This document shows, piece after piece, positions 6,106 to 28,882 of a DNA stretch of 64,000 bases (position 1 is its first letter; each line of letters opens with the position of its first letter). The position numbers and the translations under genes are program-made. Source of the DNA: Bacteroidota bacterium (GTDB lineage: Bacteria; Bacteroidota; Bacteroidia; 2-12-FULL-35-15); NCBI GenBank assembly GCA_025963715.1, contig JAOQAG010000019.1, forward strand, positions 15,330 to 79,329. The letters run 5' to 3'. The notes beneath the pieces were generated by a model that saw nothing but the letters and a program-made list of their open reading frames with translations, made no database searches and was not told where the DNA came from.

Positions 6106-6470
6106 CAACGAATAACGAATGAAAACGAATAACGGATCTGTGTAAAAAAAGTTCAAAGTTTAAAGTTCAAAAGTTTAAAATTTGCTATGTGTGAGTTCTG
6201 TGAGCTGTGTGATGGAACGCGGATAAGGCGGATGGGACGGATTGATGCGGATTTAATTTTTATGTGTACTACACAATAATGCAAGCAGGATCAATTCCCC
6301 TCTTGAGAGGGGTTAGGGGTGTGTTGGTACGGATAACGCCCGCCTGAACGATTTGGGCAGGAACAAAACGAATTTACGAATCTGTGTGGTGCTGTGTTTA
6401 TTTATTATCAAAATCACAAAAAAGAACTGTCATCCCGCAATGTTGCGGGATCTCATGAATGCTTGCAGGG
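6106..6470 (+). repeat. Intergenic mosaic of repeat modules joined by CTGTGT-like junctions
   Basis: ACGAAT, AAAGTTC, CGGAT, CCCCTCTTGAGAGGGG, CGCCCGCCTGAACG and GTCATCCCG..CGGGATCT modules, each recurring elsewhere in the window. Confidence 0.8.
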
Positions 6471-6581
6471 TGTATTTAATTTGTGCATAAAAACAACAGA
6501 GTACCATTAAACTTTAAGCAATTAAAAGAGTTTATATACATTACGAATACGAAAGACTAACGACTATATACAAAATACTAT

Positions 6582-8939
6582 ATGTGGAATTACATCGCCG
6601 GAAAAATTCTCCGAAATAAAATCACGTTTCTTATTGTGCTTGGGTTGATCACCGGGTTCATGGTCTATGAAACCTGCCAGATCAAATTGTCATACGACTT
6701 TGCACGCGTGTTACCGGTAGATGATCCGTCGTACATGGATTACATGAGCTTTAAGAAAAAATTCGGGGAAGACGGCAACGTGATGGTGATCGGATTTAAA
6801 AGCGATAATTTGTTTGAAGAAAAATTATTCAACAGCTGGAGCGGACTGGATCAGAAAATAAAATCGATCAAAGGGATCAAGGATGTGCTGGCATTAACGA
6901 GCTTGTACAACGTAACAAAAAACGACAGCCTGCATAAATTTGAATTCAAACCGATCAGCGGCGCGGCTCATTATTCGGCGCAGCAGCTGGATTCACTTAA
7001 ACAAATCATTTATTCGCTGCCATTTTACGACGGCCTTGTTTACAATAAGGAAACCGGCGCTACATTAATGGCGATCACCTTTAACAGCGCCGACCTGAAC
7101 AGCAAGCACCGGTTGGAAATGGTGAAAGACATCACTACAGCGGCAGATGCATTTGCAAAAGAAAACAATGTACCCGTGCATTATTCAGGCATGCCTTACA
7201 TCCGCTCGCACATCATGGAAAAAGTATCGGGCGAAATGGGTTTGTTCATGACGCTTGCGGTAATTGTAACCGCCGTTATTTTGTGGCTGTTCTTCCGCTC
7301 TTTCTCTTCCGTGATCGTATCGCTGATTGTTGCTGCTATTGGCGTGGTGTGGTCACTTGGCGTGATGCAGTTGTTCGGTTACAAGATCACCATCTTATCG
7401 GGATTGATCCCGCCGCTTATTATCGTGATCGGGATTCCCAACTGCGTTTTTCTCATTAATAAATACCATGCGGCGTATGTGAAGCATTCCAATAAAATGA
7501 AGGCGCTCACACAAACCATTGCCAGCATGGGCGGAACGCTGTTTTTAGCCAACGTTACTACGGCGATCGGGTTTGGCGTTTTGTATTATACCAACAGCCC
7601 GATGCTGGTGGAATTTGGCGTTGTTGCAGCAATCGGTGTGATGCTTACGTTTATGATCAGCATGATCGTAGCGCCCATATTCCTGAATTACATTGCTGTA
7701 CCAAAAGCAAAACATACCACGCATTTGGATGCAAAATACATTAACCGTCTGCTTGCAAAAGTGGATTACTGGGTGCAAAATAAGCGTGCGCAAATTTACA
7801 TCGTGATCTCGATCATTACGGTTGTTGGTTTTACCGGCATGACCATGATGCATGTGCTGGGGCATGTGGTGGATGACTTGCCGCAGAAAGATCCGGTGTA
7901 CAGCGACCTGCATTTTTTCGAAGAAAATTTTAAAGGTGTATTGCCATTTGAGATCGTGATCGATACGCGTGAAAAAGATGGCGTATTGAGCAGGAACGGA
8001 GCAATTTTATACAAGATCAACAAGCTGCAAAAAGTATTTGCAAAATATCCGGCATTCTCAAAACCCTTATCAATTGCAGAAGGCGTGAAGTTTTCGTACC
8101 AGGCGTATAATGATGGCGACAAGAAATTTTATACCGTTCCGGGTGCAACAGATCTGAAAACATTATCGGAATTTACCGGAACATTAACGGGACAACAAAA
8201 CAAACTAAAATTTTTTGTTGATAGCAGCAAACGTTACACCCGTGTGAGTTTTCAAATGGCGGATGTAGGATCGGTAGAAATAAAAAGACTGGTTGCGGAA
8301 TTAAAACCGAGGATCGACAGCATCTTTCCGCCGAAGGATTATGATGTTTCCTTAACGGGACATAGTTTGGTGTTTTTAAAATCGAATGATTATTTACTGG
8401 AGAATTTATACGAGAGCTTAGCAATCGAGATCCTGCTGGAAACGCTTGTTGGATTGGCGCTGTTCCGTTCCTTGCGGATCGTGATCCTTTCCAAAATCCC
8501 GGTATTGATCCCGCTGGTGATCACGGCCGGTGTGATGGGATTTTTGGGTATTAATTTTAAACCGACCACTATTTTAATTTTCAGCATTGCGTTTGGGATC
8601 TCCTCCGACGGTACCATTTATTTTCTGACGCGGTACCGGCAGGAATTACGGATCAAAGGCCAAAGCGTGGCGCAGGCAATTTCTACCACCATCCGGGAAA
8701 CCGGGCTGAGCATGATCTACACAGCGATCATTTTATTTTCGGGCTTTGCTATTTTTGCTGCATCGAGTTTTGGCGGCACGGTGGCGCTGGGAATTTTGGT
8801 TTCGCTTACCTTGCTCGTGGCGATCTGCACAAACCTGGTAATGTTACCGGCCATTTTGCTTTCGATCGATAAACGGAAAAGCCGGAGAGCGATGTTAAAA
8901 AAACCGCTGATCGAGATTTCGGAAGAAACGGAAGCGTAG
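6582..8939 (+). CDS. MMPL/RND family transporter
   Basis: Two repeats of TM plus extracytoplasmic loop plus 5 TM; IAFGISSDGTIYF motif. Confidence 0.9.
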   Translation: MWNYIAGKILRNKITFLIVLGLITGFMVYETCQIKLSYDFARVLPVDDPSYMDYMSFKKKFGEDGNVMVIGFKSDNLFEEKLFNSWSGLDQKIKSIKGIKDVLALTSLYNVTKNDSLHKFEFKPISGAAHYSAQQLDSLKQIIYSLPFYDGLVYNKETGATLMAITFNSADLNSKHRLEMVKDITTAADAFAKENNVPVHYSGMPYIRSHIMEKVSGEMGLFMTLAVIVTAVILWLFFRSFSSVIVSLIVAAIGVVWSLGVMQLFGYKITILSGLIPPLIIVIGIPNCVFLINKYHAAYVKHSNKMKALTQTIASMGGTLFLANVTTAIGFGVLYYTNSPMLVEFGVVAAIGVMLTFMISMIVAPIFLNYIAVPKAKHTTHLDAKYINRLLAKVDYWVQNKRAQIYIVISIITVVGFTGMTMMHVLGHVVDDLPQKDPVYSDLHFFEENFKGVLPFEIVIDTREKDGVLSRNGAILYKINKLQKVFAKYPAFSKPLSIAEGVKFSYQAYNDGDKKFYTVPGATDLKTLSEFTGTLTGQQNKLKFFVDSSKRYTRVSFQMADVGSVEIKRLVAELKPRIDSIFPPKDYDVSLTGHSLVFLKSNDYLLENLYESLAIEILLETLVGLALFRSLRIVILSKIPVLIPLVITAGVMGFLGINFKPTTILIFSIAFGISSDGTIYFLTRYRQELRIKGQSVAQAISTTIRETGLSMIYTAIILFSGFAIFAASSFGGTVALGILVSLTLLVAICTNLVMLPAILLSIDKRKSRRAMLKKPLIEISEETEA

Positions 8940-8969
8940 TGCTTTTAAATTTCCGATATTGTAGTACGA

Positions 8970-10310
8970 ATGACCGCACAAAAACTTCCTTTAAGTAAAC
9001 AGATCGCGTATGCTTTTGGCATGATGGGCTGGAGCATTATGATGAACCTGATCGGTGTGATCGTGGTTTATTTGTATGCACCACCTGATAATAGCGGGCT
9101 TCCGAGCCTGATCACACAGGCAACTATTTTTGGTTTTGTAAATGTGATCGCCATTATCATGTCGAGCGGGCGATTGGTGGATGCCGTGTACGACCCATTG
9201 ATAGCGCAATACAGCGACAAGAATAAAAATCCAAAAGGCAGGCGCATCCCGCTGATGAAAAAAGCGATCCTTCCCGCCCTGGTGTTTTGCTGCCTCATTT
9301 TTTATCCGTTAAAACAGGAAGAAAGCAGCACCAATATTGTGTGGCTGGTGATCATGCTGATCGGGTTTTACGTTTCAACGACTACGTATATCATTCCGTA
9401 TTATGCGCTGTTGCCGGAGTTGGCGCCATCCTCGGACGATAAAGTACGATTAGCCACCTGGCAATCGGTGGGTTATGTATTTGGAATTGGCGTAGCTTCC
9501 AATGCATTTAATTTAACAGATCAGCTGCAACATTCCATGCACATTGCTTCGCGGATCACAGCATTGCAATACGCGGTTTTTATCTTTGCGGTCCTTGGTG
9601 CTATTTGTCTTTGTGTTCCTGTATTTGCCATCGATGAACGAAAATACAGCAAGAGTATTCCCAGCTCTGTTCCCTTGCGTACTGCTTTGCGCGATACTTT
9701 GCGCAATAAAAATTTCCTGTTGTTTATTGTTGCTGATTTTTCTTATTTCATCGCGATCACGATTATCACTACCGGTTTGCTTTATTTCTTAAAAGTATTG
9801 CTGAGGCTGGAAGAAGCGCTGGGAAACAAGCTGATGATCATGATGGTGCTGGTGTCGTTTATTTTTTACCCGGTTGTTAATTTTCTTGCACGAAAAATCG
9901 GTAAAAAAATACTGGTGATCTTCTCCTTATTTTTATTGTCGCTGATCTTTTTAGGAATTTATTTCCTGGGGAAAGTGTCCATGGATCCTACCGTTCAAAT
10001 TTATGCACTCATTTGTGTTGCTTCCATTCCGCTTGCTTCGCTTAATATTTTACCAAACGCAATATTGGCGGAGATCATTGAAAAAGACAGTCTTGAATCG
10101 GGTGCAAATAAAGAAGCGATCTATTTTGCGGTGCGTTACTTTTTTGTAAAAATTGCGCAAACATTTGGGATCACGTTGTTTTCGATGTTCCTGATTTACG
10201 GCAAAGATCCGGGTAATGATTTTGGATTAAGGCTGAATGGGATCCTTGGGTTTGTGTTGTGTTTTGTGGCTGCGGTTACGTTTACACGGTTTAAGGAGAA
10301 GAAGGATTAA
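8970..10310 (+). CDS. MFS transporter (GPH/MelB-like)
   Basis: 12 TM, GRLVDAVYDPLIAQYSD, GRRIP, PYYALLPEL. Confidence 0.88.
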   Translation: MTAQKLPLSKQIAYAFGMMGWSIMMNLIGVIVVYLYAPPDNSGLPSLITQATIFGFVNVIAIIMSSGRLVDAVYDPLIAQYSDKNKNPKGRRIPLMKKAILPALVFCCLIFYPLKQEESSTNIVWLVIMLIGFYVSTTTYIIPYYALLPELAPSSDDKVRLATWQSVGYVFGIGVASNAFNLTDQLQHSMHIASRITALQYAVFIFAVLGAICLCVPVFAIDERKYSKSIPSSVPLRTALRDTLRNKNFLLFIVADFSYFIAITIITTGLLYFLKVLLRLEEALGNKLMIMMVLVSFIFYPVVNFLARKIGKKILVIFSLFLLSLIFLGIYFLGKVSMDPTVQIYALICVASIPLASLNILPNAILAEIIEKDSLESGANKEAIYFAVRYFFVKIAQTFGITLFSMFLIYGKDPGNDFGLRLNGILGFVLCFVAAVTFTRFKEKKD

Positions 10311-10349
10311 GGATTTTTGGATTAAGGAATTGGGATTTGCTTTGTGAAC

Positions 10350-10473
10350 GAAATTATAAATTATAGATGATGAATTATAAATTGCTGTGCGAAAAGGAAA
10401 TTATAAATTAGGAATTATAGATTATAAATTGCTGTGTGTAAAGGAAATTATAGATTATGAATTGCTATGTGTG
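10350..10473 (+). repeat. Tandem ~47-bp units of ATTATAA-type heptamers, each ending in GCTGTG
   Basis: Units start at 10350, 10397 and 10444; junctions at 10384, 10431 and 10464. Confidence 0.75.
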
Positions 10474-10514
10474 AAAAAATTAATGAATTAAAAAACTAAC
10501 CAACCATTATACTC

Positions 10515-11057
10515 ATGAAAAATCGCGGGATCCTTATTTTATTTACTTTTATTTTAGCTGCATGTAACAGCAACCAAACAAAGCCGGTGGAACCCGGGAT
10601 GGAATATGTGGAAGCTATTAAAGCGCAGTCGGAATTAATGAAGCAGGCTTTATTAAAAAGCGATTTTAAAGCATTCATTAAATTTTCCTATCCAAAGGTG
10701 GTAGAGATGATGGGCGGAGATGCAAAAATGATTGAAGCATTGGAAACCAGCTCAAAGGATATGGCTGCAGGCGGAACGGTTTTTAATAATGTAACCCTGG
10801 GAGAACCATCCAAAACGGTGAAATCCGGTACGGAGCTGCAATGCACCATTCCCCAAACCATTGATATGAGTGTTACCGGTGGTAAATTAACTGTAAAATC
10901 CACTCTCATCGCAATCTCCGGTGATGAAGGAAAAACCTGGTCTTTCCTGGATACTTCCGGAAAAGATCTTAGAGCCATGCAATTCATTTTGCCTAATTTA
11001 AGCGCAGAGTTAGTGATTCCGGCAGCGGAAGAACCGGTGTTTACGGCGGCGAAGTAA
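10515..11057 (+). CDS. Hypothetical lipoprotein
   Basis: Lipobox ILAAC; 180 aa. Confidence 0.75.
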   Translation: MKNRGILILFTFILAACNSNQTKPVEPGMEYVEAIKAQSELMKQALLKSDFKAFIKFSYPKVVEMMGGDAKMIEALETSSKDMAAGGTVFNNVTLGEPSKTVKSGTELQCTIPQTIDMSVTGGKLTVKSTLIAISGDEGKTWSFLDTSGKDLRAMQFILPNLSAELVIPAAEEPVFTAAK

Positions 11058-11077
11058 TTGCTTTTTTTAGCCACAGA

Positions 11078-11172
11078 TTCACAGATTTTTTCAGATTCAA
11101 ATTAAATTGCACGGATTAATAAAATCGCAAAGCGATTTTGAAAAAATCTGTGTAATTCTCTATCTTTTTTTA
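11078..11172. repeat. Inverted CACAGATT...AATCTGTG module (empty cassette-like site)
   Basis: GCCACAGATTCACAGATT near 11080 and AATCTGTGAATCTGTGGC near 11155. Confidence 0.6.
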
Positions 11173-11246
11173 ATCTGTGAATCTGTGGCAAAATTAGCTA
11201 GTCATAGCACTATGGCAAGATGCCATTAAATAGAATGGCACGTTGG

Positions 11247-11289
11247 GACACTCGCGCCTGCGTAAACGTTGAGACACTCGCGCCTGCGT
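11247..11289 (+). repeat. 17-bp direct repeat GACACTCGCGCCTGCGT x2 next to a REP-like GATTGCTTCG..GCAATGAC
   Basis: Copies at 11247-11263 and 11273-11289. Confidence 0.7.
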
Positions 11290-11350
11290 GCTAGTGTGTG
11301 ATTGCTTCGCTATCGCCCGCAATGACATACTTGTAAGAAATAGAGGAAAT

Positions 11351-12589
11351 TTACCGGTTAATATTATTCGGCCTTGCATACACCATCTGCATCACGTTGA
11401 TGTTGCGCATCGCGAAAGCACCTTCGCAATAACTTAAATAATAATTCCATTTGCGGATAAAGCGCTCATCAAAACCCAATTGTTTTACTTCCGCTAAATG
11501 CGCATTGAACTGATCGCGCCACAAAGCCAGTGTTTTGGAATAATGCAGGCCAATGTCCTTCAGATCCACAAGCGTCATGTTCCCTGTATTGTTAATGGAT
11601 TTGTTGATCGCGCTCACGGATGGCAATAAGGAGCCGGGGAAAATATGTTTCTGGATCCAGTCAACGCCGGTGCGTAAGCTCTCGAAACGGGAATCCGGAC
11701 AAGTGATTACCTGGATGGCAAGGATGCCGCCTTTCGTAAGTAAATCGTTACACTTTTTAAAATACACATCTAAAAATTCGGCACCCACCGCTTCCAGCAT
11801 TTCGATGGAAACAATTTTATCAAATTGTCCTTCCAGCAAGCGGTAATCCTGCAATACAATGTTTATTTTATCGGAAAGATTTTCTTTTTCCACGCGTTCT
11901 TTTGCCAGTTTGTATTGTTCTTCGGAGATGGTTGCCGTTGTTACCTTGCAGCCGTATGTTTTTGCCATGTAAATGGCATTTCCGCCCCAGCCTGTACCAA
12001 TTTCCAGTACGTGATCGGTTGGTTGCAAATGCAGCTGGCGGCACAAACGGTCGTATTTTTGAATTTGCGCTTCCTGCAGCGACAAACCTTCCTGTCTGAA
12101 ATAAGCAGAAGAATAAGTCATGGTAGGATCAAGAAACAAGGCAAAAAAATCGTTGTTCAGATCGTAATGTTCCGAAATATTTTTGCGCGAACCACTTACA
12201 CTGTTAGCACGTTTAAAATGATAGATCTTATTGAAAATTTTGAGGATGTTCAGTGTTACATTCTGCACACTGCTGCCCGAAACGGTAGGTGCGTTATCCA
12301 CATTGATCAAAAACCATTTTATAATATTTGTAATGCTATCGGTGTCCCAGATGCCGTCCATGTATGCTTCGCCAAAGCCAATATCACCGTATAAAACGCA
12401 ACGGCGGAAAAAAGAATCGTCTTTGATCTCAATGTTCGCCACAATGTTTCCTTCACCGTTCCCCAGCTTGATCTGTTCGCCGGAAGGCATTGTGATGTGA
12501 AGCATTCCCGAATTCATTTTGGTGAATAAGCTCAGGATCACTTTTTCATAAAAACCGCGCTTAACGGATGTGATGGCGACTGATGACAT
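11351..12589 (-). CDS. Cyclopropane-fatty-acyl-phospholipid synthase family SAM methyltransferase (UfaM/Cfa-like)
   Basis: GFGEAYMDG, NISEHYDLNN, MTYSSA, VLEIGTGWG, IVSIEMLEAVG, WIQKHIFPG. Confidence 0.93.
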   Translation of the reverse strand: MSSVAITSVKRGFYEKVILSLFTKMNSGMLHITMPSGEQIKLGNGEGNIVANIEIKDDSFFRRCVLYGDIGFGEAYMDGIWDTDSITNIIKWFLINVDNAPTVSGSSVQNVTLNILKIFNKIYHFKRANSVSGSRKNISEHYDLNNDFFALFLDPTMTYSSAYFRQEGLSLQEAQIQKYDRLCRQLHLQPTDHVLEIGTGWGGNAIYMAKTYGCKVTTATISEEQYKLAKERVEKENLSDKINIVLQDYRLLEGQFDKIVSIEMLEAVGAEFLDVYFKKCNDLLTKGGILAIQVITCPDSRFESLRTGVDWIQKHIFPGSLLPSVSAINKSINNTGNMTLVDLKDIGLHYSKTLALWRDQFNAHLAEVKQLGFDERFIRKWNYYLSYCEGAFAMRNINVMQMVYARPNNINR

Positions 12590-12804
12590 GTACGAATTAC
12601 TAATTTATACGAATTTACTAATCTGTGGTTATCTACTATTATCTACTAAATACTAATTTATACTAATATACTAATCTGTGTGTGAAGACCTCTCCCCTTC
12701 ATCCCCTCTCCACAAGAGAGGGGGCTGTGTGTGAACTGTGTTTATTAATGCACGATAATTATTTTCGAAAAACCGTCTACCGACTAATTACTAACTACTA
12801 CTAA

Positions 12805-13593
12805 TTACTTCCTCTTATATACGTCTCTTTGCAGATCCTGGTTTGCATCTTTTTTGTGAAAAGGCAATTTTTTCATGTATAACAAAAGTGCATTCCAGTG
12901 GATCAAAGTTATAATTTTTAATGTTATGAACGGAAAACGGATGCTGTAAAGCAGCAAGTTACGATTGTTCAATGCTTTTTTTGTTCCGGTAAGCGTACTA
13001 ATGAAAAAACGCTTTCCATCCTTAAAATCATCGATGCGGATGTTTAATTTTTCATCCGGGATCGTGAGGTTAAAATCAAAATTGGTATCATGGTCAATAA
13101 ACGGCGACACATAAAAATATTTGACAGTGTTCAGATGGTATTTATTTCCGGAAAGGTTTTGGTTCGTTAATAAATACGGCTTTATTTCACCAAAAGTATT
13201 TCCAACTTCCGAAACACAGCAAAGCGGCAAATTGTTCTCATCAAAACAATAATAAAACGAAACGGGATTAAAATTATATCCCAGTACGTTTAGATTGGTG
13301 AGCAGCATTATTTTCCCATTCCCGATCTGCACGCCATTTTCAGAAAGGTAACGCGTGATCTGCTCCCGGATGCTTTTTGTTTTGTCAGGATTGTCAATCG
13401 GTAATTGCAGATGTTCGTTATCGCGCAGGCTAAAAAAATTGAACCGGTTTTTACTGAACATGAACAACTTTTTGCGCAGCATTTCCACTTCATCCAGGTC
13501 GATATAAAACATAAACACATTGTAATGGAACCGGTGCGAGCGGGGTTCCATGCGGTTGTGCATTACAGTTGCTTTATAGAGTACGGAATTCAT
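12805..13593 (-). CDS. DUF1365 family protein (UfaO-like)
   Basis: HNR..P..HRFHY, LGYNFNPVSFYYC, EVGNTFGE, FYVSPF. Confidence 0.93.
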   Translation of the reverse strand: MNSVLYKATVMHNRMEPRSHRFHYNVFMFYIDLDEVEMLRKKLFMFSKNRFNFFSLRDNEHLQLPIDNPDKTKSIREQITRYLSENGVQIGNGKIMLLTNLNVLGYNFNPVSFYYCFDENNLPLCCVSEVGNTFGEIKPYLLTNQNLSGNKYHLNTVKYFYVSPFIDHDTNFDFNLTIPDEKLNIRIDDFKDGKRFFISTLTGTKKALNNRNLLLYSIRFPFITLKIITLIHWNALLLYMKKLPFHKKDANQDLQRDVYKRK

Positions 13594-13685
13594 CTTTAAT
13601 TGTTAATTTTTCACATCTACCAAATACCAAAACATACTAATATACCAATCTGGGTGCGATCCTGTGTGTGATAAATAGGTAAAAC

Positions 13686-14078
13686 TTAATTTAAATTTAC
13701 TAATCTTTTAAAAATCGCGCCGGTAGGTGTATAATTTATCAGGATCGCCAGTTTCATTCCGCTTGATTTTAAATATTGGTTTACCTGATCTATATTTGAC
13801 TTAGAAAAATTAGCGCTCTTTTTTAATTCTATAATAACCTGCTCTTCTACAATAAAATCGCAAAATGCTTTTCCTATCGTTTCTCCCTGAAATTTTAAAG
13901 GAAAATAAGCTTGCTCCTTAAACAAAATATTTTTGTTCTTTAGCGCTACAGAAAGTGCTTTTTGATAATACTTTTCAGGATGTCCGTAACCTAATTCATT
14001 AAACACATCAAACGCACAACCAACTATTTTAAAACTTAATTCAGGATAGATCAAATCATCTATTATCTTCTTCATCAA
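13686..14078 (-). CDS. GxxExxY family protein
   Basis: VFNELGYGHPEKYY, CDFIVEEQVIIELK, QVNQYLK, LINY. Confidence 0.92.
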   Translation of the reverse strand: MMKKIIDDLIYPELSFKIVGCAFDVFNELGYGHPEKYYQKALSVALKNKNILFKEQAYFPLKFQGETIGKAFCDFIVEEQVIIELKKSANFSKSNIDQVNQYLKSSGMKLAILINYTPTGAIFKRLVNLN

Positions 14079-14139
14079 TTTACTTTTTCGCGCAAATGTA
14101 ATCTTTTGTTACACGCAGCACAACACACAGATTAGTATA

Positions 14140-15402
14140 TTAGTATGCATTAGTATTTAGTAGATTGTTACACAGATCCACAGCACTCTTAAACGCATCC
14201 TCATGAAAGCCGTATTTAAAATAACTTCCGCAAAAATACAGCGGGCCGGTTTCATTTAATATCTGTAATTCATTTTGCGCCATCATGGCCGATACATCAA
14301 ATAACGGATGTTCGTAATCAATTTCGCGAATGATCTTTTTGGGATCCACCGTGCCCGGAATGGCATTGATGGACACAAAATAATTTTTCTTTTTTGACAC
14401 TTGCTGCAGGCTGTTCATCCAGTAAATGGTTGTGGGTACCTGCACTCCTTCCCTGTTCTCGATCCTGTAATTCCAGCTACTCCAGGTCAATTTTGTTTTG
14501 GGCATGATGGATTCATCCGTGTGTACAGTAGCACTATTTTTTTGATACTTGAATGGCGCTAACAGTCTTTTTTCGTCCGCTGTTGGGTTTTGAATTAATT
14601 TTAATGCCTGGTCGGCGTGGCAGGCAAAAATCACTTTATCAAATGTATGTGTTTGTCCGTTTGCCGTTGTCACGATGGCTTTTCCGTTCTCACGCTTTAC
14701 ACTTACAGTCCCGTTATTGATCTGGATCTTATCCTTAAAAGGTTCGATCAATAATTTACGGTACGATTGGCTGCCATCCTGCAAGGTGTACCATTGGTGC
14801 TGTGTGTTCAATCCCAAAAATCCATGATTTTTAAAAAAACGTACCAGTGTAACGATCGGAAAATCCAGCATTTCGTCCATCGGCGTAGACCAAACGGCAG
14901 AACTCATTGGAATTAAATATTTCCAGAGCATATCGTCGCCATAATTAAATTCTTTGATGTATTCTTTTAAGGAATAATTTTCAAATTTAGGATCGTCGAG
15001 GATCTTTACGCTTTCTTTGTTGAAGCGCGTGATCTGCATCAGCATACGAATGTAGCGCGGACTGAAAATATTTTTCCGTTGTGCAAACAAGCCATTCAAT
15101 CCCGAACCGCAATATTCCAGTCCGCTTTCGGTGTGCTGTACGCTAAACGACATTTCTGTTTTTTTGACCGGCGCTTTTATTTCGTCAAATAATCGATGCA
15201 GGTTCGGATAGGTTTCAAAATTAAAAACCATAAAACCGGTATCCATGTAAACCGGCTGCCCGTCTTCATCTACCGTAACCGTATTTGTATGTCCACCTAC
15301 ATAATTATCCTGCTCAAAAATGCTGAGGTCGTATTTTTTGTGAAGAAAATGCCCGCATCCCATTCCTGCGATTCCTGTTCCTATAATGGCTAATTTTTCC
15401 AA
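14140..15402 (-). CDS. FAD-dependent oxidoreductase, amine-oxidase family (UfaD-like); TTG start
   Basis: AIIGTGIAG, GGHTNT, DTGFMVFN..TYP, CGSYFKYGFHEDA. Confidence 0.92.
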   Translation of the reverse strand: MEKLAIIGTGIAGMGCGHFLHKKYDLSIFEQDNYVGGHTNTVTVDEDGQPVYMDTGFMVFNFETYPNLHRLFDEIKAPVKKTEMSFSVQHTESGLEYCGSGLNGLFAQRKNIFSPRYIRMLMQITRFNKESVKILDDPKFENYSLKEYIKEFNYGDDMLWKYLIPMSSAVWSTPMDEMLDFPIVTLVRFFKNHGFLGLNTQHQWYTLQDGSQSYRKLLIEPFKDKIQINNGTVSVKRENGKAIVTTANGQTHTFDKVIFACHADQALKLIQNPTADEKRLLAPFKYQKNSATVHTDESIMPKTKLTWSSWNYRIENREGVQVPTTIYWMNSLQQVSKKKNYFVSINAIPGTVDPKKIIREIDYEHPLFDVSAMMAQNELQILNETGPLYFCGSYFKYGFHEDAFKSAVDLCNNLLNTNAY

Positions 15403-15517
15403 TTTAGTTTATTTTTTTATCTACTAAATACCAATCCCGCACGTGCGGTACTAATATACTAATCTGTGTTTGTTATGTTATATAATCTATTTATACAGAT
15501 TGGTATATTGGTAAAAA

Positions 15518-16657
15518 TTAGTATTTGGTAGATGTTGCTGAATTAATAAAACGCTCAATCGTGTATGTTGTGATCTGTCCGCTTGGTCCGTTAATGTTAT
15601 AATCGCAGCCGTGTGTGGCCCAGGGAAGATCTAAAAAATAATTCTTCACGTGATAGTTGTCGAGTTTCTTTTTTAAATGCACACTGTGCTGAAACCCCAC
15701 CATACAATCGTGTTTACCGTGAATAATGAGTGTTGGTGTGGAATTACTCTCCACAAATTCGAAAGGAGAACTTAACTTATATTTTTCAGGTGCATCTTTA
15801 TAAAGCCCGCCAATGTAATCGCTCAGCACTTTGTCGGTATCTATCACCCATTTATTTCCTTTGACCTGTGCACCCCATACCATATCGGCAGGTGCATAAA
15901 ACGAGATCACGCCTTTTATCCGCGGATCATGAAAAGTATAGGCTGCCAGCAATGCAATTTGTCCGCCTGCAGAGCGGCCCAGCAAAATAAAATTAGCAGT
16001 ATCCACTTTTAATTCTGCTGCATTTGCAATGATGTAATTCATTACTTCTTTTGTGTCTTCAATGGGTGCAGGACATTTAAAATCCGGCGCCATCCTGTAA
16101 TTAACGGATGCCACATTGCAACCATGGTTTGCTAAATAACTATTCAATGCGGGCAATTGCTGACTGTCGCCTTCGGCCCAGGATCCGCCATGGATCACAA
16201 TTACACAGGGAGCAACCTGATTTGTATTTGCAGGATAATAATCAAAGCTTAGTTGTTTTGCATCCGATGATTTTGTATAAGCAATGGTTTTGTATGTTGC
16301 ATTGCCAGCTCCGATGCCGCTGAACATTTTTGTAAACGAAAATGGTTTTTCTAATTGTTGTGCTGCTGTTCCTTTCGCAGGAAATTCGTTTTCAATCGTA
16401 ATTTTTGAAGCATAAAAATACGCGCGAAAAATGGTGGAGCTGAATAAAAGCAACGCGATCAATCCTAAAGTAACGGAAAGGAATTTATAATAATCCGCCC
16501 AAAAGCAACTGATCAGGAAAAGAAACGTAACGAAAACAAATACATATGGAAACTCCGTGATCGCAACTGTTGCACGCCACAACAAGTTTGTTGGTGCTTT
16601 GAATAGCACCAGCAATGAGAGTAAAAAAAGAAGTATGGCGAGTATCAGTCGGATCAT
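15518..16657 (-). CDS. Membrane-anchored alpha/beta hydrolase (HSL-like esterase)
   Basis: HGGSW oxyanion motif, GRSAGG nucleophile elbow, D and HG triad; N-terminal TM helices. Confidence 0.88.
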   Translation of the reverse strand: MIRLILAILLFLLSLLVLFKAPTNLLWRATVAITEFPYVFVFVTFLFLISCFWADYYKFLSVTLGLIALLLFSSTIFRAYFYASKITIENEFPAKGTAAQQLEKPFSFTKMFSGIGAGNATYKTIAYTKSSDAKQLSFDYYPANTNQVAPCVIVIHGGSWAEGDSQQLPALNSYLANHGCNVASVNYRMAPDFKCPAPIEDTKEVMNYIIANAAELKVDTANFILLGRSAGGQIALLAAYTFHDPRIKGVISFYAPADMVWGAQVKGNKWVIDTDKVLSDYIGGLYKDAPEKYKLSSPFEFVESNSTPTLIIHGKHDCMVGFQHSVHLKKKLDNYHVKNYFLDLPWATHGCDYNINGPSGQITTYTIERFINSATSTKY

Positions 16658-16685
16658 GAATTAGATTTTGTTTATTCTGTATTTT

Positions 16686-16826
16686 ACACACCCCTAACCC
16701 CTCTCAAGAGGGGAATTCGATCCTGCACGCATTAAAAATTATTTTCTTGTTTAATGATTAATTAATAACTAAACATTTAAAATTCTGCAGCGGCTATTCC
16801 CCTCTTGAGAGGGGTTAGGGGTGTGT
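16686..16826. repeat. REPIN/MITE-like element: perfect 31-bp inverted repeats around an AT-rich core
   Basis: 16686-16716 is the exact reverse complement of 16796-16826; identical copy at 6294-6324, one-mismatch copy at 25842-25872. Confidence 0.85.
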
Positions 16827-16840
16827 TCTGCATAAAGCAA

Positions 16841-17869: not shown

Positions 17870-17879
17870 AAACGGATGT

Positions 17880-17970
17880 TGGATTTTGGAATTTTGGATT
17901 TAGGATTTAGGATTTAGGATTTAGGATTTTGCTGTGTGTTTGCTGTATGTTATTTGCTGTGCGGGTTGTT
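17880..17970 (+). repeat. GGATTTA heptamer tandem followed by three GCTGT junctions
   Basis: GGATTTAGGATTTAGGATTTAGGATTTAGGATTTTGCTGTGTG. Confidence 0.75.
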
Positions 17971-18802: not shown

Positions 18803-18816
18803 ACGGAAAAGAAGGT

Positions 18817-19149: not shown

Positions 19150-19155
19150 CCGTTT

Positions 19156-20933: not shown

Positions 20934-20939
20934 GCATTT

Positions 20940-22172: not shown

Positions 22173-22460
22173 GGGAGTTCAAAGTTTAAAGTTCAAAAGT
22201 TTGCTGTGTGGCTCCTGCGGAGCAGACTTTACCACTAAGGCACTAAGAAAACACTAAGAAGGAAAGGAGAAAAAGAGTTTTTGCTGTGGCTCCTTCGGAG
22301 CAGTTTTTTTGCCACGAAGACGCAAAGGCGCAAAAGGATTGCTGATTATTATTTACGAATCATTATAAAGAATATTATAATCATCATAAAGAAACGTCAT
22401 TCCGTGCTTAGCCTGTCCCGAATCTTCGGGAACACGGGATCTCATAAATGTTTGCTCACA
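22173..22460 (+). repeat. Intergenic mosaic of repeat modules
   Basis: AAAGTTC module, two GCTGTG(T)GGCTCC..CGGAGCAG units with CACTAAG or CGCAAA repeats, then a GTCATTCCG..CGGGATCTCAT REP. Confidence 0.78.
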
Positions 22461-22567
22461 TACAATTAGAATTTTTCATTTTTTTAATTCATAATTTTAA
22501 ATTTATAGTTCCTGATTTTTTTTCCTTTTTCATTCATAATTTATAATTCAACATTTATAATTTTTTT

Positions 22568-23159: not shown

Positions 23160-23574
23160 AACATTGTATTTACCCCCGCCCCCATTCACCACAAAAGGCA
23201 CAAAAGAAAACATAAGGCGTAGCGTGAAATGTGCTTGATATTTCCAGGAATTTAGTTGAGAAAAAACGTTTGTGCTTTTTGTTTCTTTTGTGGTAAAACT
23301 CACAATCCTTTGCGAACTCTGCGGTAAAGTACACACAGCAAACTTTGAACTTGCTTTTAATTGGCAGATCCCGGGTCAAGCCCGGGATGACAACACGGAG
23401 TGGAATTGGCTTCCGTTTTTAGTAAACCCAGCATCAGCGCACAGCATACTTTGAACTAAGTACTTGTAGGTGCTAGGCTCTGCCTAGTGACAAGATTTGC
23501 AATGTCACTAGGCAGAGCCTAGCGCCTACGTACACAGCTAACTTTGAACTTTCCAACTTTAAACTTTGAACTCC
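23160..23574 (-). repeat. Intergenic mosaic including a 27-bp-stem hairpin (23466-23529) and a GTCATCCCGGG..CCCGGGATCT REP
   Basis: Three AAAGTT..GCTGTG junctions on the minus strand (near 23335, 23441 and 23533) separating distinct modules. Confidence 0.8.
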
Positions 23575-24564: not shown

Positions 24565-24771
24565 GCTGAGTAAAGATAAGAAATTAAAAGATCGGGGGAA
24601 GAATGAAAAATGGAGACCGCAGGTTTTAAGGAAAAAAGCTGTGATAACAAAAAATGGGAACGCAGATTTATTATGATCCTTATGATCAGGAATGATAAAA
24701 TACAATGTACCGCTTATGGTAAAAATATGATTTGATTGGTTACAAGTTTATCTTTGCAGTATTTAATTAAC

Positions 24772-24872
24772 AGATCCCGGGTCAAGCCCGGGATGACAGA
24801 CAAATGGATGAAAACTCTTACAATTACATACGGCAAACATCTATGGGATCCCGCAACATTGCGGGATGACAG
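24772..24872. repeat. Two GTCAT-type REP hairpins
   Basis: AGATCCCGGGTCAAGCCCGGGATGACA and GGATCCCGCAACATTGCGGGATGACA, matching copies at 23367 and 6429. Confidence 0.8.
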
Positions 24873-25059
24873 CTCTGAAGGGAGTGCTTCTAAAAATCAG
24901 CATTCAGAAAACACAGAAAAGCGAAGCTTCTCTGCGAACTAAAAACAGAAAGCATTCGCATTTACTTTCACATTGTCTTTGCGGCCTCTGCGGTTAAAAA
25001 AACGCTACAAAAAAAGCCTCACATCCCTGTGAAGCTCTTTAAACTCTGTGCCCTCTGTG

Positions 25060-25799: not shown

Positions 25800-26067
25800 T
25801 CTAAAATTAAAATTCCAATACAGATCGTTATTTGTAAATTTACACACCCCTAACCCCTCTCAAGAGAGGAATTGATCCTGCACATTTTTATAATAGCTTA
25901 AGCAAAATCTGCTTTTATCTGTTTTATCCGCCAAATCCGCGTTCCATTACACAGCACTACACAGCAAAATTAAACTTTTGAACTTTAAACTTTGAACTGT
26001 TTTTACACAGATTCGTAATTTCGTTCCTGTTCCTGCCCGAATCGTTCAGGCGGGCGGTATCCGTACT
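25800..26067 (-). repeat. Intergenic mosaic sharing modules and module order with 6106-6390
   Basis: Reverse complement reads GTACGGATA-CGCCCGCCTGAACG..ACGAATCTGTGT, AAAGTTC..GCTGTGT, ATGGAACGCGGAT.., GCAGGATCAATTCC.CTCTTGAGAGGGGTTAGGGGTGTGT. Confidence 0.85.
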
Positions 26068-27417: not shown

Positions 27418-27449
27418 AAGTTTCAGTTCGCCAATTTAATACTGTTTAG

Positions 27450-27600
27450 TTTCTGCAAACATTTATGAGATCCCGTGTCAGGCACGGGATGACAGTTCTT
27501 TTTTGTGATTCCGATACAAAAATAAAATTCAGCACCACACAACTCACACACAGCAAACTTTAAACTTTTGAACTTTAAACTTTGAACTATTTTTTCGTTA
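27450..27600 (-). repeat. Intergenic mosaic (AAAGTTC module, GCTGTGTG junction, GTCATCCCG REP)
   Basis: AATCACAAAAAAGAACTGTCATCCCG..CGGGATCTCAT shared with the 6410-6460 region. Confidence 0.78.
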
Positions 27601-28687
27601 TTCGTACTTTCAATAATCCGTTGAACGTATCGAGGTAATTGTTTTTTTGCGACTCCATCGAATATTTTTCCAGCACGGTTTTTCTTCCGGCGGCGCCCAT
27701 CTTTTTACGCAGCTCATAGGAATCGATCAGCTGCGAAAGTTTACTGATCCAATCTTCTTCCGAATTGGCAATAAAACCATTAATGCCGTCATCGATGATC
27801 TCGGAATTTACTCCTACGCCCGACATGATGGTGGGTACTTCCACCGCCATGTACGACAAACCTTTTAAGCCACATTTCCCTTTTACCCATTCATCATCCG
27901 GCAAGGGCATAATGCCAATATCAAAGCTTTGCAGCGCGCTTACTTCTGTTTCACTCGTCCATTGAATTCCTTCGATGCCAAGCGCTGCATTTTTATAAGT
28001 AGCATCGCCCATCACTTTAAAATAAATGCGGTTACCGTACTTTTTTTGCAGGACTGTTAAAAACGGAACGGCCTGCTCAAAATGCTTGATGGTAGTAATA
28101 CTTCCGCTCCAGCCGATGCAGATCCTGTCGTTATCGCGGTAAGCGGAAGTGCGCCGGAACGTATCCGTATCAATGGTTGTGGGAATTACTTTTGTATTTT
28201 TATTAAATTGCCTGGCGTAGCTGGCGAGGTAATTATTTCCGGCAAAGATCACGTCTGAAATGGCGATGATCTCCCCCGTTTTCTTTTCGCTTTTCAGCCA
28301 TGCCCATTTTTTGTTTGCTTTGGAAGTGTCGAGCAGCCAAATGGAATCATCGAAATCGAAGATGAACTTTGCACCTGTTTTTGCAAATTGTTTTTCGAAA
28401 TACGCCGAGCCGGTCATGAAGGCTTCGCGCTGCACAAAAATAATATCAAATTGTTTTGCACGATGCACATCGTTCATACGCTTCCGCAGGCTTTTCAGCG
28501 TGATCAAAAATTTCTGAAAAATGTTGCCGGGACGGTAAAAGATCCGGTCGGCATTGGCATCGATGATGTACGACAGCTCGCATTCATAGCCATTTGCCTG
28601 CAGGAACGGAAAATATTGTTCGAACCGGTATCGCTGGCTGGGCGAACGGTTGGGACGGTGTGCTGCTATAAATAGGATCCTGGGCAT
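27587..28687 (-). CDS. Glycosyltransferase family 4
   Basis: IGWSGS, FDIGIMPL, GKCGLKGLSYMA.EVP, IIDDGINGF. Confidence 0.92.
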   Translation of the reverse strand: MPRILFIAAHRPNRSPSQRYRFEQYFPFLQANGYECELSYIIDANADRIFYRPGNIFQKFLITLKSLRKRMNDVHRAKQFDIIFVQREAFMTGSAYFEKQFAKTGAKFIFDFDDSIWLLDTSKANKKWAWLKSEKKTGEIIAISDVIFAGNNYLASYARQFNKNTKVIPTTIDTDTFRRTSAYRDNDRICIGWSGSITTIKHFEQAVPFLTVLQKKYGNRIYFKVMGDATYKNAALGIEGIQWTSETEVSALQSFDIGIMPLPDDEWVKGKCGLKGLSYMAVEVPTIMSGVGVNSEIIDDGINGFIANSEEDWISKLSQLIDSYELRKKMGAAGRKTVLEKYSMESQKNNYLDTFNGLLKVRITKK

Positions 28688-28737
28688 TAAAAATTCTTAA
28701 TATAATTATGTTTTCAGCAGCAATTGCCTTCACACCC

Positions 28738-28797
28738 CCTTCGACAAGCTCAGGGTGACCGCACACAGATTCATTGTCATCCTGAGCTTGTCGAAGG
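28738..28797. repeat. REP pair CCTTCGACAAGCTCAGG(G/A)TGAC
   Basis: 22-bp inverted repeat with 1 mismatch (28738-28759 / 28776-28797), CACACAG in the spacer. Confidence 0.82.
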
Positions 28798-28882
28798 ACG
28801 TAAAGATTCGTGATCCGTATCCGCAAAGATAAAAAGTAAGCGCAAACAGCCATCATTTTTTATATCTTTGAAGCTAAGAGTT

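Follow-up and report, generated by a model that had tools for sequence, protein, structure and literature searches.

The gene gaps between 6 and 29 kb of the window, a 64,000-nt stretch of an uncultured soil Bacteroidota genome, house a BIME/SDR-like mosaic of small repeats, mobile or recombining, that is restricted to this lineage and lies between ordinary genes. Of the 16 gaps that measure at least 40 nt, 15 contain modules, in agreement with the original observation that most intergenic spaces in this region are strings of modules, and the only module-free gap of that size is a divergent promoter gap (19891-20057). All repeat types that had been named were confirmed (AAAGTTC, ATTATAA, GGATTTA, ACTAAT, ACGAAT, CGGAT, CACTAAG, CGCAAAG and several hairpins). 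The repeat families are confined to the native part of the window, OLLL01 and L096; the low-GC island that follows the native part (33.7-64 kb) lacks them, and 1.24 Mb of relatives contain next to none.

The modules are discrete, sharp-ended repeats whose copies number in the tens to hundreds. Copy numbers were taken from a source-like metagenome (X1, contigs only, single-copy depth 24) as depth ratios, to which related strains may contribute: compared with a depth of 24 in genes, the AAAGTTC module (A module) reached 9,300-21,300, H1 4,100-10,600, H2 7,000-10,100 and the ACTAAT unit 2,900-3,800. Matches to the ACTAAT unit start at 12640/41 in 36 contigs of X1 and stop at 12681-84 in 39. The depth on the modules at 10302..10475 was only about twice single copy, and the GGATT/ATTATAA modules there are therefore low-copy "private" variants. 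The low-copy variants ATTATAA and GGATTTA resemble the products of local, microsatellite-type slippage in unconstrained A/T-rich DNA, a process that would involve no dispersal and in which CTGTG would mark the point where expansion stops. Arrays of 7-8-mers are also common in all relatives (134 arrays with many unit sequences in 1.2 Mb), and heptamers are, as far as the summary of Mrazek 2007 given in PMC4679880 conveys, the commonest long simple repeats in bacteria. Slippage is nevertheless a highly improbable explanation of the arrays as a whole: identical, sharply delimited units of 27-44 nt are found again at numerous unrelated loci as well as in other assemblies, and entire composites recur 20 kb apart. 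A reading based on slippage only is contradicted for the A and ACTAAT families and is valid only for the diversification of the unit bodies.

Whether one system built the arrays, as had been proposed, is not established; at least two kinds of element are mixed, palindromes that fold strongly (z -4 to -13) and heptamer modules with z about 0 (-1 to +0.6). The first kind is palindromic and REP/MITE-like and comprises H1, H3, the double-foot GTAG..CTAC palindrome and hairpins with arms of 8-mer repeats. The second kind consists of unstructured units of 35-45 nt, each built from three to eight 7-8-mers in tandem and closed by a fixed terminal box, (G)CTGTG(TGTGA). The heptamer modules form two broad classes, and class II units have the form ATCTAC-[TACNAAT]x4-CTGTG. 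Modules are nested in one another, with insertions inside a hairpin loop and within arms, where palindromes of 13-23 nt were found (15437-15449, 6339-6361, and CCCGATAGCTATCGGG in L096, L005 and L082). It is unlikely that a RAYT (HUH/Y1) encoded elsewhere moves all modules as single-stranded DNA by cleaving at CT(G), as in a classical REP/BIME system. The capped heptamer modules are unfolded and lack a GT[AG]G foot, no RAYT or other Y1 transposase was found among the scanned ORFs of the window, and the arrays are mostly head-to-tail, whereas BIMEs alternate in orientation; in the heptamer modules there is no hairpin, and the REP/RAYT mechanism is therefore not obviously applicable to them. On the other side, the elements are extragenic, clustered and of high copy number, and hairpin families are present that include the double-foot palindrome at 23466-23530 (z -13). 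This REP type has been reported for RAYT subclass 2.4 in Bacteroidetes, and the REPs of subclass 2.6, which is mostly found in Bacteroidetes, are atypical, being only weakly structured and lacking GTAG (PMC6006769). The different repeat families probably have different drivers.

The CTGTGT motif was recovered at all sites where it had been seen, within 0-3 nt: as exact CTGTGT at 6138, 6382, 10432, 12676, 13662, 15464, 17932 and 22204, as exact ACACAG at 23333, 23532, 25949/25959, 26005 and 27548, and as a variant at 6185 (CTATGT) and 10385 (CTGTGC). The predicted enrichment held against shuffled controls, with 41 matches on both strands of the window (15.3±3.5 expected) and none of 100 dinucleotide-preserving shuffles reaching that number. 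Within 1-33.7 kb the intergenic density (24 matches in 5,182 nt) is 14-fold the genic density (9 in 28,552 nt of coding sequence), and the intergenic DNA of the low-GC island contains only 2 matches in 4,498 nt. A CT[GA]TG lies within 5 nt of one defined end in 10 of 12 tandem 7-8-mer arrays (permutation control: mean 0.47, maximum 5 among 100,000), and this cap is lineage-specific, being present on 1 of the 134 arrays of the relatives. Module boundaries coincide with (C)TGTGT, as expected: copies elsewhere in the genome begin or end their match at 6143-6145, 12640/12641 and 12681-12684, at or adjoining the ends of CTGTGT boxes.

The motif is not, however, the neutral junction or required target that had been envisaged. 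CTGTG(TG) is the own terminal box of each module, at its 3' end, and probably also the joining point. The first module of an array has no CTGTGT ahead of it, and solo units in X1 contigs sit in mutually unrelated A/T-rich flanks without a preceding CTGTGT. These observations leave little room for an integron-like, site-specific recombination that stacks cassettes at a CTGTGT core, which is a very remote prospect. Like integron cassette arrays, the arrays are stacks of units in one orientation with a recurring short motif between them, caps bracket inserted modules as direct repeats (12676-85 and 12725-34; 22200-25 and 22280-303), and in one gap some relatives carry one small gene and others a different one. 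In contrast to integrons, neither an integrase nor a tyrosine or serine recombinase turned up in the ORFs that were scanned, there is no attC-like imperfect palindrome, and nearly all units are gene-free, the one exception being old. CTGTGT bears no resemblance to the attC core, GTTRRRY, and the cap differs between related genomes (GCCGTATGT in L096). Of the "BIME-like or integron-like" array that was proposed, the BIME-like part, a mosaic of small and separately recurring modules, thus stands and the integron-like part does not.

The individual arrays document this modularity. Directly 3' of the YitT stop codon, the plus-strand mosaic at 6106..6470 consists of an ACGAAT module with CTGTGT (6106-6143), an A module with a triple cap (6144-6212), a CGGAT module (6213-6270), the H1 hairpin CCCCTCTTGAGAGGGG..GGTGTGT (6285-6325), an H2 arm with a nested hairpin between GGTACGGATAACG and ACGAATCTGTGT (6326-6387), an extra cap GGTGCTGTGT (6388-6397) and the H3 hairpin GTCATCCCGCAATGTTGCGGGATC (6423-6470); copies elsewhere start to match at 6143-6145 and at 6285, and their match ends at 6324. 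A minus-strand composite of H2 arm, A, CGGAT and H1 (25842..26066), directly 3' of the GcvT stop codon, is homologous to 6128-6387 (78% over 197 nt, 6128-6324 against 26020-25842, and 92% over 62 nt), so that, contrary to what had been thought, the module types are not all unrelated. Another minus-strand array (27453..27592), in which an A module that starts within the GT1 stop codon is followed by caps and an H3 hairpin, is homologous to 6146-6202 and 6383-6468. The plus-strand array at 10302..10475 combines a GGATT array, which overlaps the stop codon of MFS2 and terminates in GCTTTGTGA, with three ATTATAA modules that end in GCTGTGCG, GCTGTGTG and GCTATGTG (47-nt super-repeat). The array at 12590..12741 (plus strand) starts at the CFAS start codon with an ACGAAT/ACTAAT module (12590-12628), which is followed by the ACTAAT unit ATCTAC..CTGTGTG (12641-12684); next comes a 39-nt CCTCTCCCC hairpin (12686-12724) bracketed by the 10-nt direct repeat CTGTGTGTGA (12676-12685 and 12725-12734). 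An unstructured GGATTTA array of about eight units (17870..17965, plus strand, z +0.4) extends from the MT2 start codon and is followed by three caps, GCTGTGTG, GCTGTATG and GCTGTGCG. The plus-strand array 3' of the NaH stop codon (22173..22567) runs from an A module through a cap with the hairpin GCTGTGTGGCTCCTGCGGAGCAG and a CACTAAG module to a second cap, which has a T-run and a terminator-like hairpin (22284-22310), and then through CGCAAAG repeats and a hairpin of the H3 type (about 22395-22455) to an array of ATTTATA units that abuts the MiaE start codon; X1 has copies of this region without the second cap-flanked insert (22225-22303).

The palindromic elements are equally varied. The nested hairpin at 11066..11193 (DNA fold -30.1 kcal/mol, z -7.6) has outer arms of tandem 8-mers, GCCACAGATTCACAGATT and AATCTGTGAATCTGTGGC, and a palindromic insert of about 75 nt in its loop, and the joints in many X1 and X2 copies show that these lack 11090-11166. 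A gene-less palindrome of two four-box arms (15403..15529, ACTAAT/ACCAAT, fold z -4.1), whose CTGT..ACAG ends face the loop and which carries the nested 13-nt mini-palindrome CCCGCACGTGCGG in one arm (15437-15449), provides BDFAE with its last codons and its stop codon. Two inverted H1 copies spaced by 61 nt form a MITE/REPIN-like doublet at 16683..16827 (fold -43.9 kcal/mol, z -11.1) whose outer ends are ACACAC...GTGTGT. The minus-strand array at 23331..23574, which has its anchor point at the S1/P1-like gene's stop codon, contains three A modules (one full, two short), the double-foot GTAG..CTAC palindrome (23466-23530, fold -32.7 kcal/mol, z -13.2) and an H3-type hairpin (23366-23392). Two further H3-type hairpins, GATCCCGGGTCAAGCCCGGGATGAC and GATCCCGCAACATTGCGGGATGAC, lie at 24762..24876, and a hairpin of CCTTCGACAAGCTCAGGGTGAC and GTCATCCTGAGCTTGTCGAAGG with ACACAGATT in its loop lies at 28738..28797 (fold z -6.9).

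The only gene enclosed by modules encodes a GxxExxY/PDDEXK_3 protein of 130 aa (13686..14078, minus strand; PF13366, E 1.5e-29; TIGR04256). Its arms are inverted copies of one module family: a plus-strand four-box arm, ATCTACCAAATACCAA..ATACCAATCTGG..CCTGTGTG (13615..13668), adjoins the stop-codon end of the gene, toward which its cap points, about 20 nt from the DUF1365 start codon, and the inverted second arm (14123..14170, minus strand) overlaps the 3' end of the amine-oxidase gene (last codons and stop codon). The predicted structure identifies the product as a PD-(D/E)XK nuclease-fold protein (AF2 pLDDT 91.8; Foldseek matches to lambda exonuclease, Cas4 and Hjc-type nucleases), and residues E34, D73 and E83-x-K85 are invariant in 31 homologs. 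To state that the window holds no candidate enzyme was therefore too strong, as it contains this gene and an IS1595-type DDE transposase (45597-46523), both as candidates only. All fetched homologs, from 84% down to 60% identity, lie in the AmOx-DUF1365 gap; the sole gene-bearing case is thus old and syntenic and not the recent cassette insertion that had been suggested. The four-box arm is conserved across genomes, with a variable letter that changes concertedly, and in other relatives the same gap contains a four-helix-bundle gene (TIGR02436) between heptamer arms of its own. We take the TIGR02436 family to include the 23S rRNA intervening-sequence proteins. In 23S rRNA intervening sequences, a small ORF (S23 IVS four-helix-bundle, TIGR02436) lies between inverted repeats that are cut by RNase III. 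The arrangement seen here shares with these the small gene between long inverted arms and a predicted transcript stem but differs in its protein-coding operon, its arms of tandem 7-8-mers and the putative nature of any processing.

Spread of the modules as RNA-level cis-elements, through selection and gene conversion and not transposition, is somewhat less probable still than the classical REP/BIME mechanism; equally doubtful are the roles they would then have, as long stems for RNase III processing, as in rRNA intervening sequences, or as A/U-rich, unstructured spacers for translation stop and restart in a phylum that hardly uses Shine-Dalgarno sites. This explanation draws on the GxxExxY arms, which pair in a predicted stem of about 55 bp around the ORF in operon-sense RNA (z -5.4), remain complementary across genomes with six compensated pairs and are kept together with the small gene down to 60% protein identity, and on the TIGR02436 gene with its own arms in the same gap. 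It also draws on A modules that lie 3-8 nt from start codons in OLLL01 and on a translational role proposed for TAACTGA heptamers just upstream of start codons (MacGregor 2015, PMC4679880). However, A modules are found both in sense, following stop codons, and in antisense, preceding start codons, and thus provide no constant RNA sequence, no excess of terminator-like sites was found, and most relatives manage without the arrays. The syntenic gaps of 80 relatives are mostly 2-60 nt long, some with overlapping stop and start codons. The BDFAE-AmOx gap is 5-6 nt in 9 of the 11 relatives shown, compared with 115 nt here, with an overlapping TAATG in several relatives and quite different elements in L096 and L098; the NaH-MiaE gap is reduced to TAA-A-ATG in L003, L009 and L063 (395 nt here) and the MT2-BDFAE gap to about 6 nt (183 nt here).

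Complete array turnover between genomes that are about 88% identical also speaks against an RNA-level role. In metagenome contigs of such a relative (X2), compared by joints and by lengths of intervening sequence, orthologous gaps differ by whole blocks, as predicted, with blocks missing or replaced. The H1 doublet is absent through a clean 183-nt skip from 16669 to 16853, the 165-nt stretch 12560-12724 is replaced by 63 nt with the match resuming exactly at the CTGTGTGTGA box (12725), 82 nt stand in place of the 332-nt stretch 22187-22518 while the gene-proximal ends on both sides are retained, and the 410-nt stretch 6093-6502 is replaced by 114 nt. These differences could be losses rather than gains, and no unambiguous target-site duplication was found for solo units. 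Among A copies found by pattern, the tail of the first module points toward the nearest gene end in 9 of 13 cases, with three of the four exceptions internal to arrays; this bias is not explained by simple random insertion and could reflect selection or function.

The reading we favour, and consider probable, is that the gaps between 6 and 29 kb contain a counterpart of REP/BIME elements, lineage-restricted, small, non-autonomous dispersed repeats that invaded the very short gaps between the genes of a compact chromosome and piled up in them. Besides the motif and capping statistics, the copy numbers and the sharp unit ends, this reading draws on the compact ancestral gaps of the syntenic relatives, the different elements that occupy one gap in different lineages, the block differences from X2, the cap repeats around inserted modules, the nesting, the restricted distribution of the families and the conserved four-box arm. 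The CTGTG box would be a conserved terminal recognition or joining site at which new modules join, either through an enzyme acting in trans, which would insert at the box and thereby duplicate it, or through template switching or unequal recombination between boxes. Because new modules would be added at boxes, arrays would grow from inside while the gene-proximal module stays fixed. The 7-8-mer bodies would subsequently drift by slippage and concerted evolution, and related modules would therefore appear unrelated. Class II units may carry the sequence of the inverted arms that have long enclosed GxxExxY, multiplied as solo units in this lineage.

It is also probable that the repeat landscape is the Bacteroidota counterpart of the heptamer and small-dispersed-repeat landscape of Nostoc, which reportedly combines SDRs with tandem heptamer repeats (Elhai et al. 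2008, Genome Res 18:1484). Both have very small elements inside heptamer arrays, MITE-like elements and each other, but phylum and sequences differ, and to our knowledge the Nostoc SDR description does not include a CTGTG cap that heptamer arrays have in common. According to PMC5861425, reports of SDRs come from Nostocaceae only. TAACTGA and other heptamer direct repeats occur by start and stop codons in Beggiatoaceae, Cyanobacteria and five Bacteroidetes (MacGregor 2015, PMC4679880). These and the cyanobacterial STRRs resemble the present arrays as tandem heptamers in gaps near start or after stop codons, with shorter, heptamer-free gaps in close relatives; no tandem TAACTGA was found here, the unit sequences are different, and the modules are of defined length, end in a fixed box, reach high copy numbers and form mosaics with hairpin elements. 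With the REP/BIME/REPIN elements and RAYTs (TnpA-REP) of E. coli and Pseudomonas (PMC3116915, PMC3733652, PMC6006769) the repeats share a short, extragenic form in hundreds of copies, occurrence as singles, inverted doublets and mosaic clusters, a lineage-restricted and strain-variable distribution and, in some families, true palindromes including the double-foot type, whereas the commonest modules here are unstructured 7-8-mers with a CTGTG box instead of GT[AG]G-footed hairpins. The gene gaps here present a REP/BIME-like situation of unusual form, in which many of the repeats are runs of 7-8-base units that share a CTGTG(TG) end box.

The window derives from an uncultured Bacteroidota bacterium of soil. 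Its genes between 1 and 33.7 kb are ordinary housekeeping genes, among them a conserved cluster for lipid modification (CFA synthase, DUF1365, amine oxidase, BD-FAE hydrolase, methyltransferase, DUF1295, and desaturase). The best 80 syntenic loci in the species collection all belong to metagenome-assembled genomes of the Bacteroidota/Chitinophagales type, and the nearest shows 84% amino acid identity in the amine oxidase. A Nostoc-type cyanobacterial origin, suggested at first by the heptamers, was rejected on these grounds. Two metagenome runs were also used: X1, a soil run that contains 94% of the sampled words from 20-29 kb, and X2, which holds a relative whose genes are ~87-88% identical to those of the window. 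End-proximal proteins extended the sequence beyond the window ends by ~1.2 kb and ~0.6 kb. A low-GC island (~32%, between ~27 and ~36%) at 33866-63000 carries defence-type or phage-related genes (AAA_13, Abi_alpha, HNH endonuclease, DUF2779, UvrD-like helicase, M78 peptidase with HTH, DUF3368, Peptidase_U49, DUF2130) and an IS1595-type DDE transposase (45597-46523) that is overlapped by DUF2779. The island contains none of the repeat modules, which is consistent with its recent acquisition. The transposase was considered as a driver of the modules and rejected because it has no inverted ends similar to any of them.

The modules are dispersed repeats with discrete units. The Logan contigs of X1 are interrupted at nearly every module, and the summed contig depth rises from 24 in the genes to 9,300-21,300 in the AAAGTTC module (A, 6140-6199), 4,100-10,600 in the H1 hairpin, 7,000-10,100 in the arm element H2, and 2,900-3,800 in the ACTAAT unit (12641-12684). 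These ratios point to a copy number of about 100 to several hundred in a metagenome that may include related strains. The ends are sharp: other copies of A in X1 start matching at 6143-6145, directly past the CTGTGT at 6138-6143, and for the ACTAAT unit 36 contigs start at 12640/41 and 39 end at 12681-84, which is its CTGTGTG end. Since the X1 flanks beyond these ends are diverse and mainly A/T-rich, the CTGTG box belongs to the unit as its 3′ end; it is no obligatory target. A scan of JGI metagenomes with a 27-nt core of A returned 14 loci, nine of them from a single assembly (OLLL01), which holds the same repeat families in different combinations; the A, H1, H3 (a second hairpin family), and double-foot families hardly occur in the 80 relatives (1.24 Mb). 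As in REP/BIME landscapes, the modules are extragenic, high-copy, and clustered in mosaics. Furthermore, 12 arrays of period 7-8 lie between 6 and 28 kb, most of them beginning at a start or stop codon or a few nucleotides from one, as in heptamer direct repeats; tandem TAACTGA was absent from the window.

Two kinds of element are intermixed, palindromes and capped heptamer units. The imperfect palindrome of 20-40 nt that marks a REP unit fits H1 and H3 as well as the 8-mer hairpins and the double-foot element (fold z -2 to -13 against shuffles). The H1 doublet (16683-16827, z -11), the double-foot GTAG..CTAC element (23466-23530, z -13), a nested 8-mer hairpin (11066-11193, z -7.6), a hairpin region at 28728-28812 (z -6.9), and a palindrome at 15403-15520 (z -4.1) all belong to the structured kind. 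It does not fit the A, ACTAAT, GGATTTA, and H2 units, which show no folding beyond shuffles (z -1 to +0.6). A GT[AG]G foot occurs solely in the double-foot element (GTAGG..CCTAC) and its OLLL01 relative, and the capped heptamer units lack it. Between the window and another genome (L086, ~1290-1355) both arms of the double-foot element have changed together (CTAGG/CCTAG against CCAGG/CCTGG), so the stem is preserved. The H1 doublet and the palindrome at 15403-15529 have inverted ends and are missing at orthologous sites; of the further marks of a MITE, neither a clear target-site duplication nor a parent IS was found. Tiny palindromes of 13-23 nt, such as CCCGCACGTGCGG, CCCGCCTGAACGATTTGGGCAGG, and CCCGATAGCTATCGGG, are nested inside arms and other repeats (window 15437-15449 and 6339-6361; L096 2570-2587 and 5220-5330; L005; L082 4770-4790), and CCCGATAGCTATCGGG was seen repeatedly in several different genomes.

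Two classes of heptamer body can be told apart: in one, R-rich/T-rich units precede G-CTGTG, and in the other (class II, to which the ACTAAT unit belongs), TACNAAT boxes precede CTGTG. The module types had been described as unrelated, which applies to only some of them: homology links 6128-6324 with 26020-25842 (78% over 197 nt) and 6383-6468 with 27541-27453, and a composite of H2 arm, A, and H1 is present twice in tandem in the relative L096.

The observed pattern of boxes is confirmed. All CTGTGT sites named in the original prediction were recovered, 0-3 nt from the positions given and in two cases as one-letter variants, and the motif is enriched (41 sites on both strands compared with 15.3±3.5 in dinucleotide-preserving shuffles). 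Between 1 and 33.7 kb, 24 sites lie in 5,182 nt of intergenic DNA versus nine in 28,552 nt of genic DNA. The 4,498 nt of intergenic DNA in the low-GC island contain only two, which ties the excess to the modules as opposed to intergenic DNA in general. Among the 12 period 7-8 arrays in the gaps of 6-28 kb, which were identified with TRF, 10 carry CT[GA]TG at most 5 nt from one defined end; when the motif sites were placed at random 100,000 times, 0.47 arrays were capped on average and five at most. The local consensus is (AAT or TTTG)-CTGTG-TGTGA. In the relatives a strict period-7 filter for capped arrays gave almost no matches because the unit length alternates between 7 and 8 nt, and TRF was used instead; it identified 134 tandem 7-8-mer arrays of other sequences, one of which carries the cap. 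A reading of TTTG-CTGTG as the Bacteroidetes -7 box TAnnTTTG was rejected by eye on account of its spacing. An Rfam scan of the whole window at the gathering threshold gave zero matches, and between 6 and 26 kb there was no excess of terminators (23 compared with 21.7 in shuffles) or of sigma-70-type promoters (63 compared with 53.6, with a consensus that is unsuited to Bacteroidota).

Synteny is kept in the relatives, yet their gaps are tiny. The gap between the BD-FAE hydrolase and amine oxidase genes is 5-6 nt in nine of the 11 relatives shown (several with a TAATG stop/start overlap) compared with 115 nt in the window, the gap between the methyltransferase and BD-FAE hydrolase genes is ~6 nt compared with 183 nt, and the NaH-MiaE gap is reduced to TAA-A-ATG in three relatives (L003, L009, L063) compared with 395 nt. 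In L002, L004, and L005 the same NaH-MiaE position holds an insert of ~28 nt made of ATTTCAA/ATTTTAG units; this contrast among close relatives is a minimal case of a heptamer array arising between a stop and a start codon. The closer relatives L096 and L098 have quite different elements in the gap between the BD-FAE hydrolase and amine oxidase genes. In the X2 orthologs, the H1 doublet is gone through a clean 183-nt skip, 63 nt stand in place of 12560-12724 with the alignment restarting precisely at CTGTGTGTGA at 12725, 114 nt stand in place of 6093-6502, and 82 nt stand in place of 22187-22518, with retention of the stop-codon A module and the start-codon ATTTATA array. Module-free gaps (e.g., 19891-20057) align normally. 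Within the limits of contig-level data, from which the X2 block differences derive, the differences between relatives thus coincide with modules, the test proposed in the original prediction.

The final five codons of the BD-FAE hydrolase gene and its stop codon come from the inserted palindrome (15402, 15518-15540), and the amine oxidase gene of the window seemingly begins with TTG instead of ATG; several relatives overlap the two genes as TAATG. The DUF1365 and DUF1295 genes (12797-12811 and 18006-18020) share an identical final 16 nt (AGGAAG-TAA-TTAGTAG on the sense strand), which suggests that a repeat end may overlap or have replaced the stop-codon region in both. A predicted gene for a 180-aa lipoprotein with a signal peptide ending in LAAC (10515-11057) lies between MFS2 and the CFA synthase gene with arrays on both sides. 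It has no match in Pfam or NCBIfam, and the 80 syntenic loci, in which this gap is mostly 4-340 nt, yielded no homolog.

Inserted blocks are bordered by direct repeats of the cap. A 39-nt hairpin is enclosed by CTGTGTGTGA at 12676-85 and 12725-34, a CACTAAG module is enclosed by cap and hairpin copies at 22200-25 and 22280-303 (some copies in X1 lack the CACTAAG block), and the array at 6.1 kb has ~175 nt extra inside the cap region relative to its copy at 27.5 kb. Modules might be inserted at the box, which is duplicated in the process, or they might arise through template switching or unequal recombination from one box to another; the direct repeats are compatible with either route.

The arrays also show a polarity. 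Among 13 copies of A identified by pattern, the tail lies at most 14 nt from a stop or start codon in nine, three of the other four are array-internal, and in every measurable case the gap in front of the cap spans 164 nt or more. Arrays at 6106, 10302, 12590, 17870, 22173, 23574, 26065, and 27586 and in the loci L082-L095 are anchored by the tail to a stop or start codon, with the CTGTG end directed away from the anchoring gene regardless of gene strand, the remnants at 12775-12804 and 17990-18013 being exceptions. The A unit is in sense orientation after stop codons and in antisense before start codons, which makes a constant function at the RNA level unlikely.

The original prediction placed no candidate enzyme in the window, but candidate nucleases are present. 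At 13686-14078 lies a gene for a GxxExxY/PDDEXK_3 protein of PD-(D/E)XK fold (PF13366, 103 bits with a cut-off of 22; TIGR04256, 103.6 with a cut-off of 35), in which the catalytic residues E34, D73, and E83-x-K85 are invariant across 31 homologs. A sequence search of the PDB gave no significant match and only the fold search was informative: the confidently predicted structure (pLDDT 91.8) has lambda exonuclease, Cas4, and Hjc-type nucleases among its matches, which confirms the nuclease fold. The gene is flanked by inverted class II units. When 20 arms taken from nine genomes are aligned, they share a conserved four-box array, ATCTAC-GAA-ATACGAAT-nnn-TACGAAT-ATACGAAT-CTGTG, in which the variable letter (G, T, or C) shifts concertedly within each genome. 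In operon-sense RNA the arms are predicted to pair into a ~55-bp stem that encloses the entire ORF (z -5.4), and the pairing is retained across genomes with some changes compensated. The layout is similar to that of 23S rRNA intervening sequences, in which a small gene likewise lies between arms.

All GxxExxY homologs fetched (84% down to 60% identity) occupy the gap between the amine oxidase and DUF1365 genes; the gene is not a recent cassette. It is present there in the window (gap 13594-14139) and in L011, L013, L019, L023, L039, L049, L098, and L102-L110, and neither it nor the four-helix-bundle gene described next was found elsewhere in 1.7 Mb of loci. In other relatives the gap is empty or holds a four-helix-bundle gene (TIGR02436) between GGAAGAT-type heptamer arms (L002, L015, L024, L031, L036, L038, L045). 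Each gene type is enclosed by its own kind of inverted tandem-heptamer arms; in L023 the gene is inverted and L037 retains a fragment alone. In the lineage of the window the arm sequence has been amplified as a solo unit to >100 copies. A link between GxxExxY presence and extra class II arms elsewhere in a locus was considered and found unconvincing (6 arms in 159 kb versus 9 in 1,133 kb, with four of the six being the window's own).

To our knowledge, small dispersed repeats are understood mechanistically only for hairpin REPs and their RAYT transposases. The REP/BIME/REPIN systems are among the closest known, and the window landscape works like BIMEs or small dispersed repeats (SDRs); the main units, however, have neither a palindrome nor a GT[AG]G foot, the defining features of REPs, and no RAYT (Y1 HUH) gene was found among the ORFs scanned in 64 kb of the genome. 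In Nostoc, according to Elhai in 2008, SDRs of 21-27 nt (families SDR1-8) reportedly sit within heptamer arrays, within MITEs, and within one another. The nested 13-23-nt palindromes described above are similar in behavior. The Nostoc repeats are cited in two papers (PMC3116915, PMC5861425), heptamer direct repeats beside start codons are described from Beggiatoaceae, Cyanobacteria, and five Bacteroidetes (PMC4679880), and Bacteroidetes have RAYTs of subclass 2.4, with double-foot REPs, and of subclass 2.6, whose repeats are atypical and weakly structured (PMC6006769). An integron-like array had also been proposed. The 35-80-nt units contain no ORF, the heptamer units are unstructured where a cassette combines an ORF with an attC palindrome, and no recombinase domain, of intI or otherwise, turned up among the ORFs scanned, which speaks against that part of the prediction. 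A single system is not necessarily at work, as palindromic and unstructured elements are mixed. Overall, the interpretation given in the original prediction is partly supported: the gaps hold a mosaic of small units that move or recombine and are probably joined at a common box. In literature of incomplete coverage, where absence of evidence is all that a negative search conveys, no report was found of capped heptamer units or of heptamer arms around GxxExxY or four-helix-bundle genes. A more novel reading, that the capped units would form an undescribed, hairpin-independent class of miniature mobile elements in Bacteroidota, with the four-box arm as the recognition array of the enclosed GxxExxY nuclease and CTGTG as the cleavage or joining site for module exchange, is regarded as improbable; on that reading GxxExxY, a large uncharacterised family, would act as a nuclease in homing or transposition.

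Small dispersed repeats mould bacterial genomes. The window adds, from a non-model phylum, hairpin-less and sharp-ended units that have a common terminal box, are stacked at gene ends, and turn over between genomes of 88% identity. These units fragment short-read assemblies at nearly every gene gap, overwrite the last codons and possibly a start codon of their neighbors, and separate translationally coupled gene pairs. They offer a concrete system in which to test how repeats of this type move, or whether recombination acts instead. The mechanism of the hairpin-less units and their testable link to the GxxExxY arms are the reasons for interest, and the conserved inverted heptamer arms around GxxExxY or four-helix-bundle genes are a testable lead on the function of two very large, uncharacterised families.
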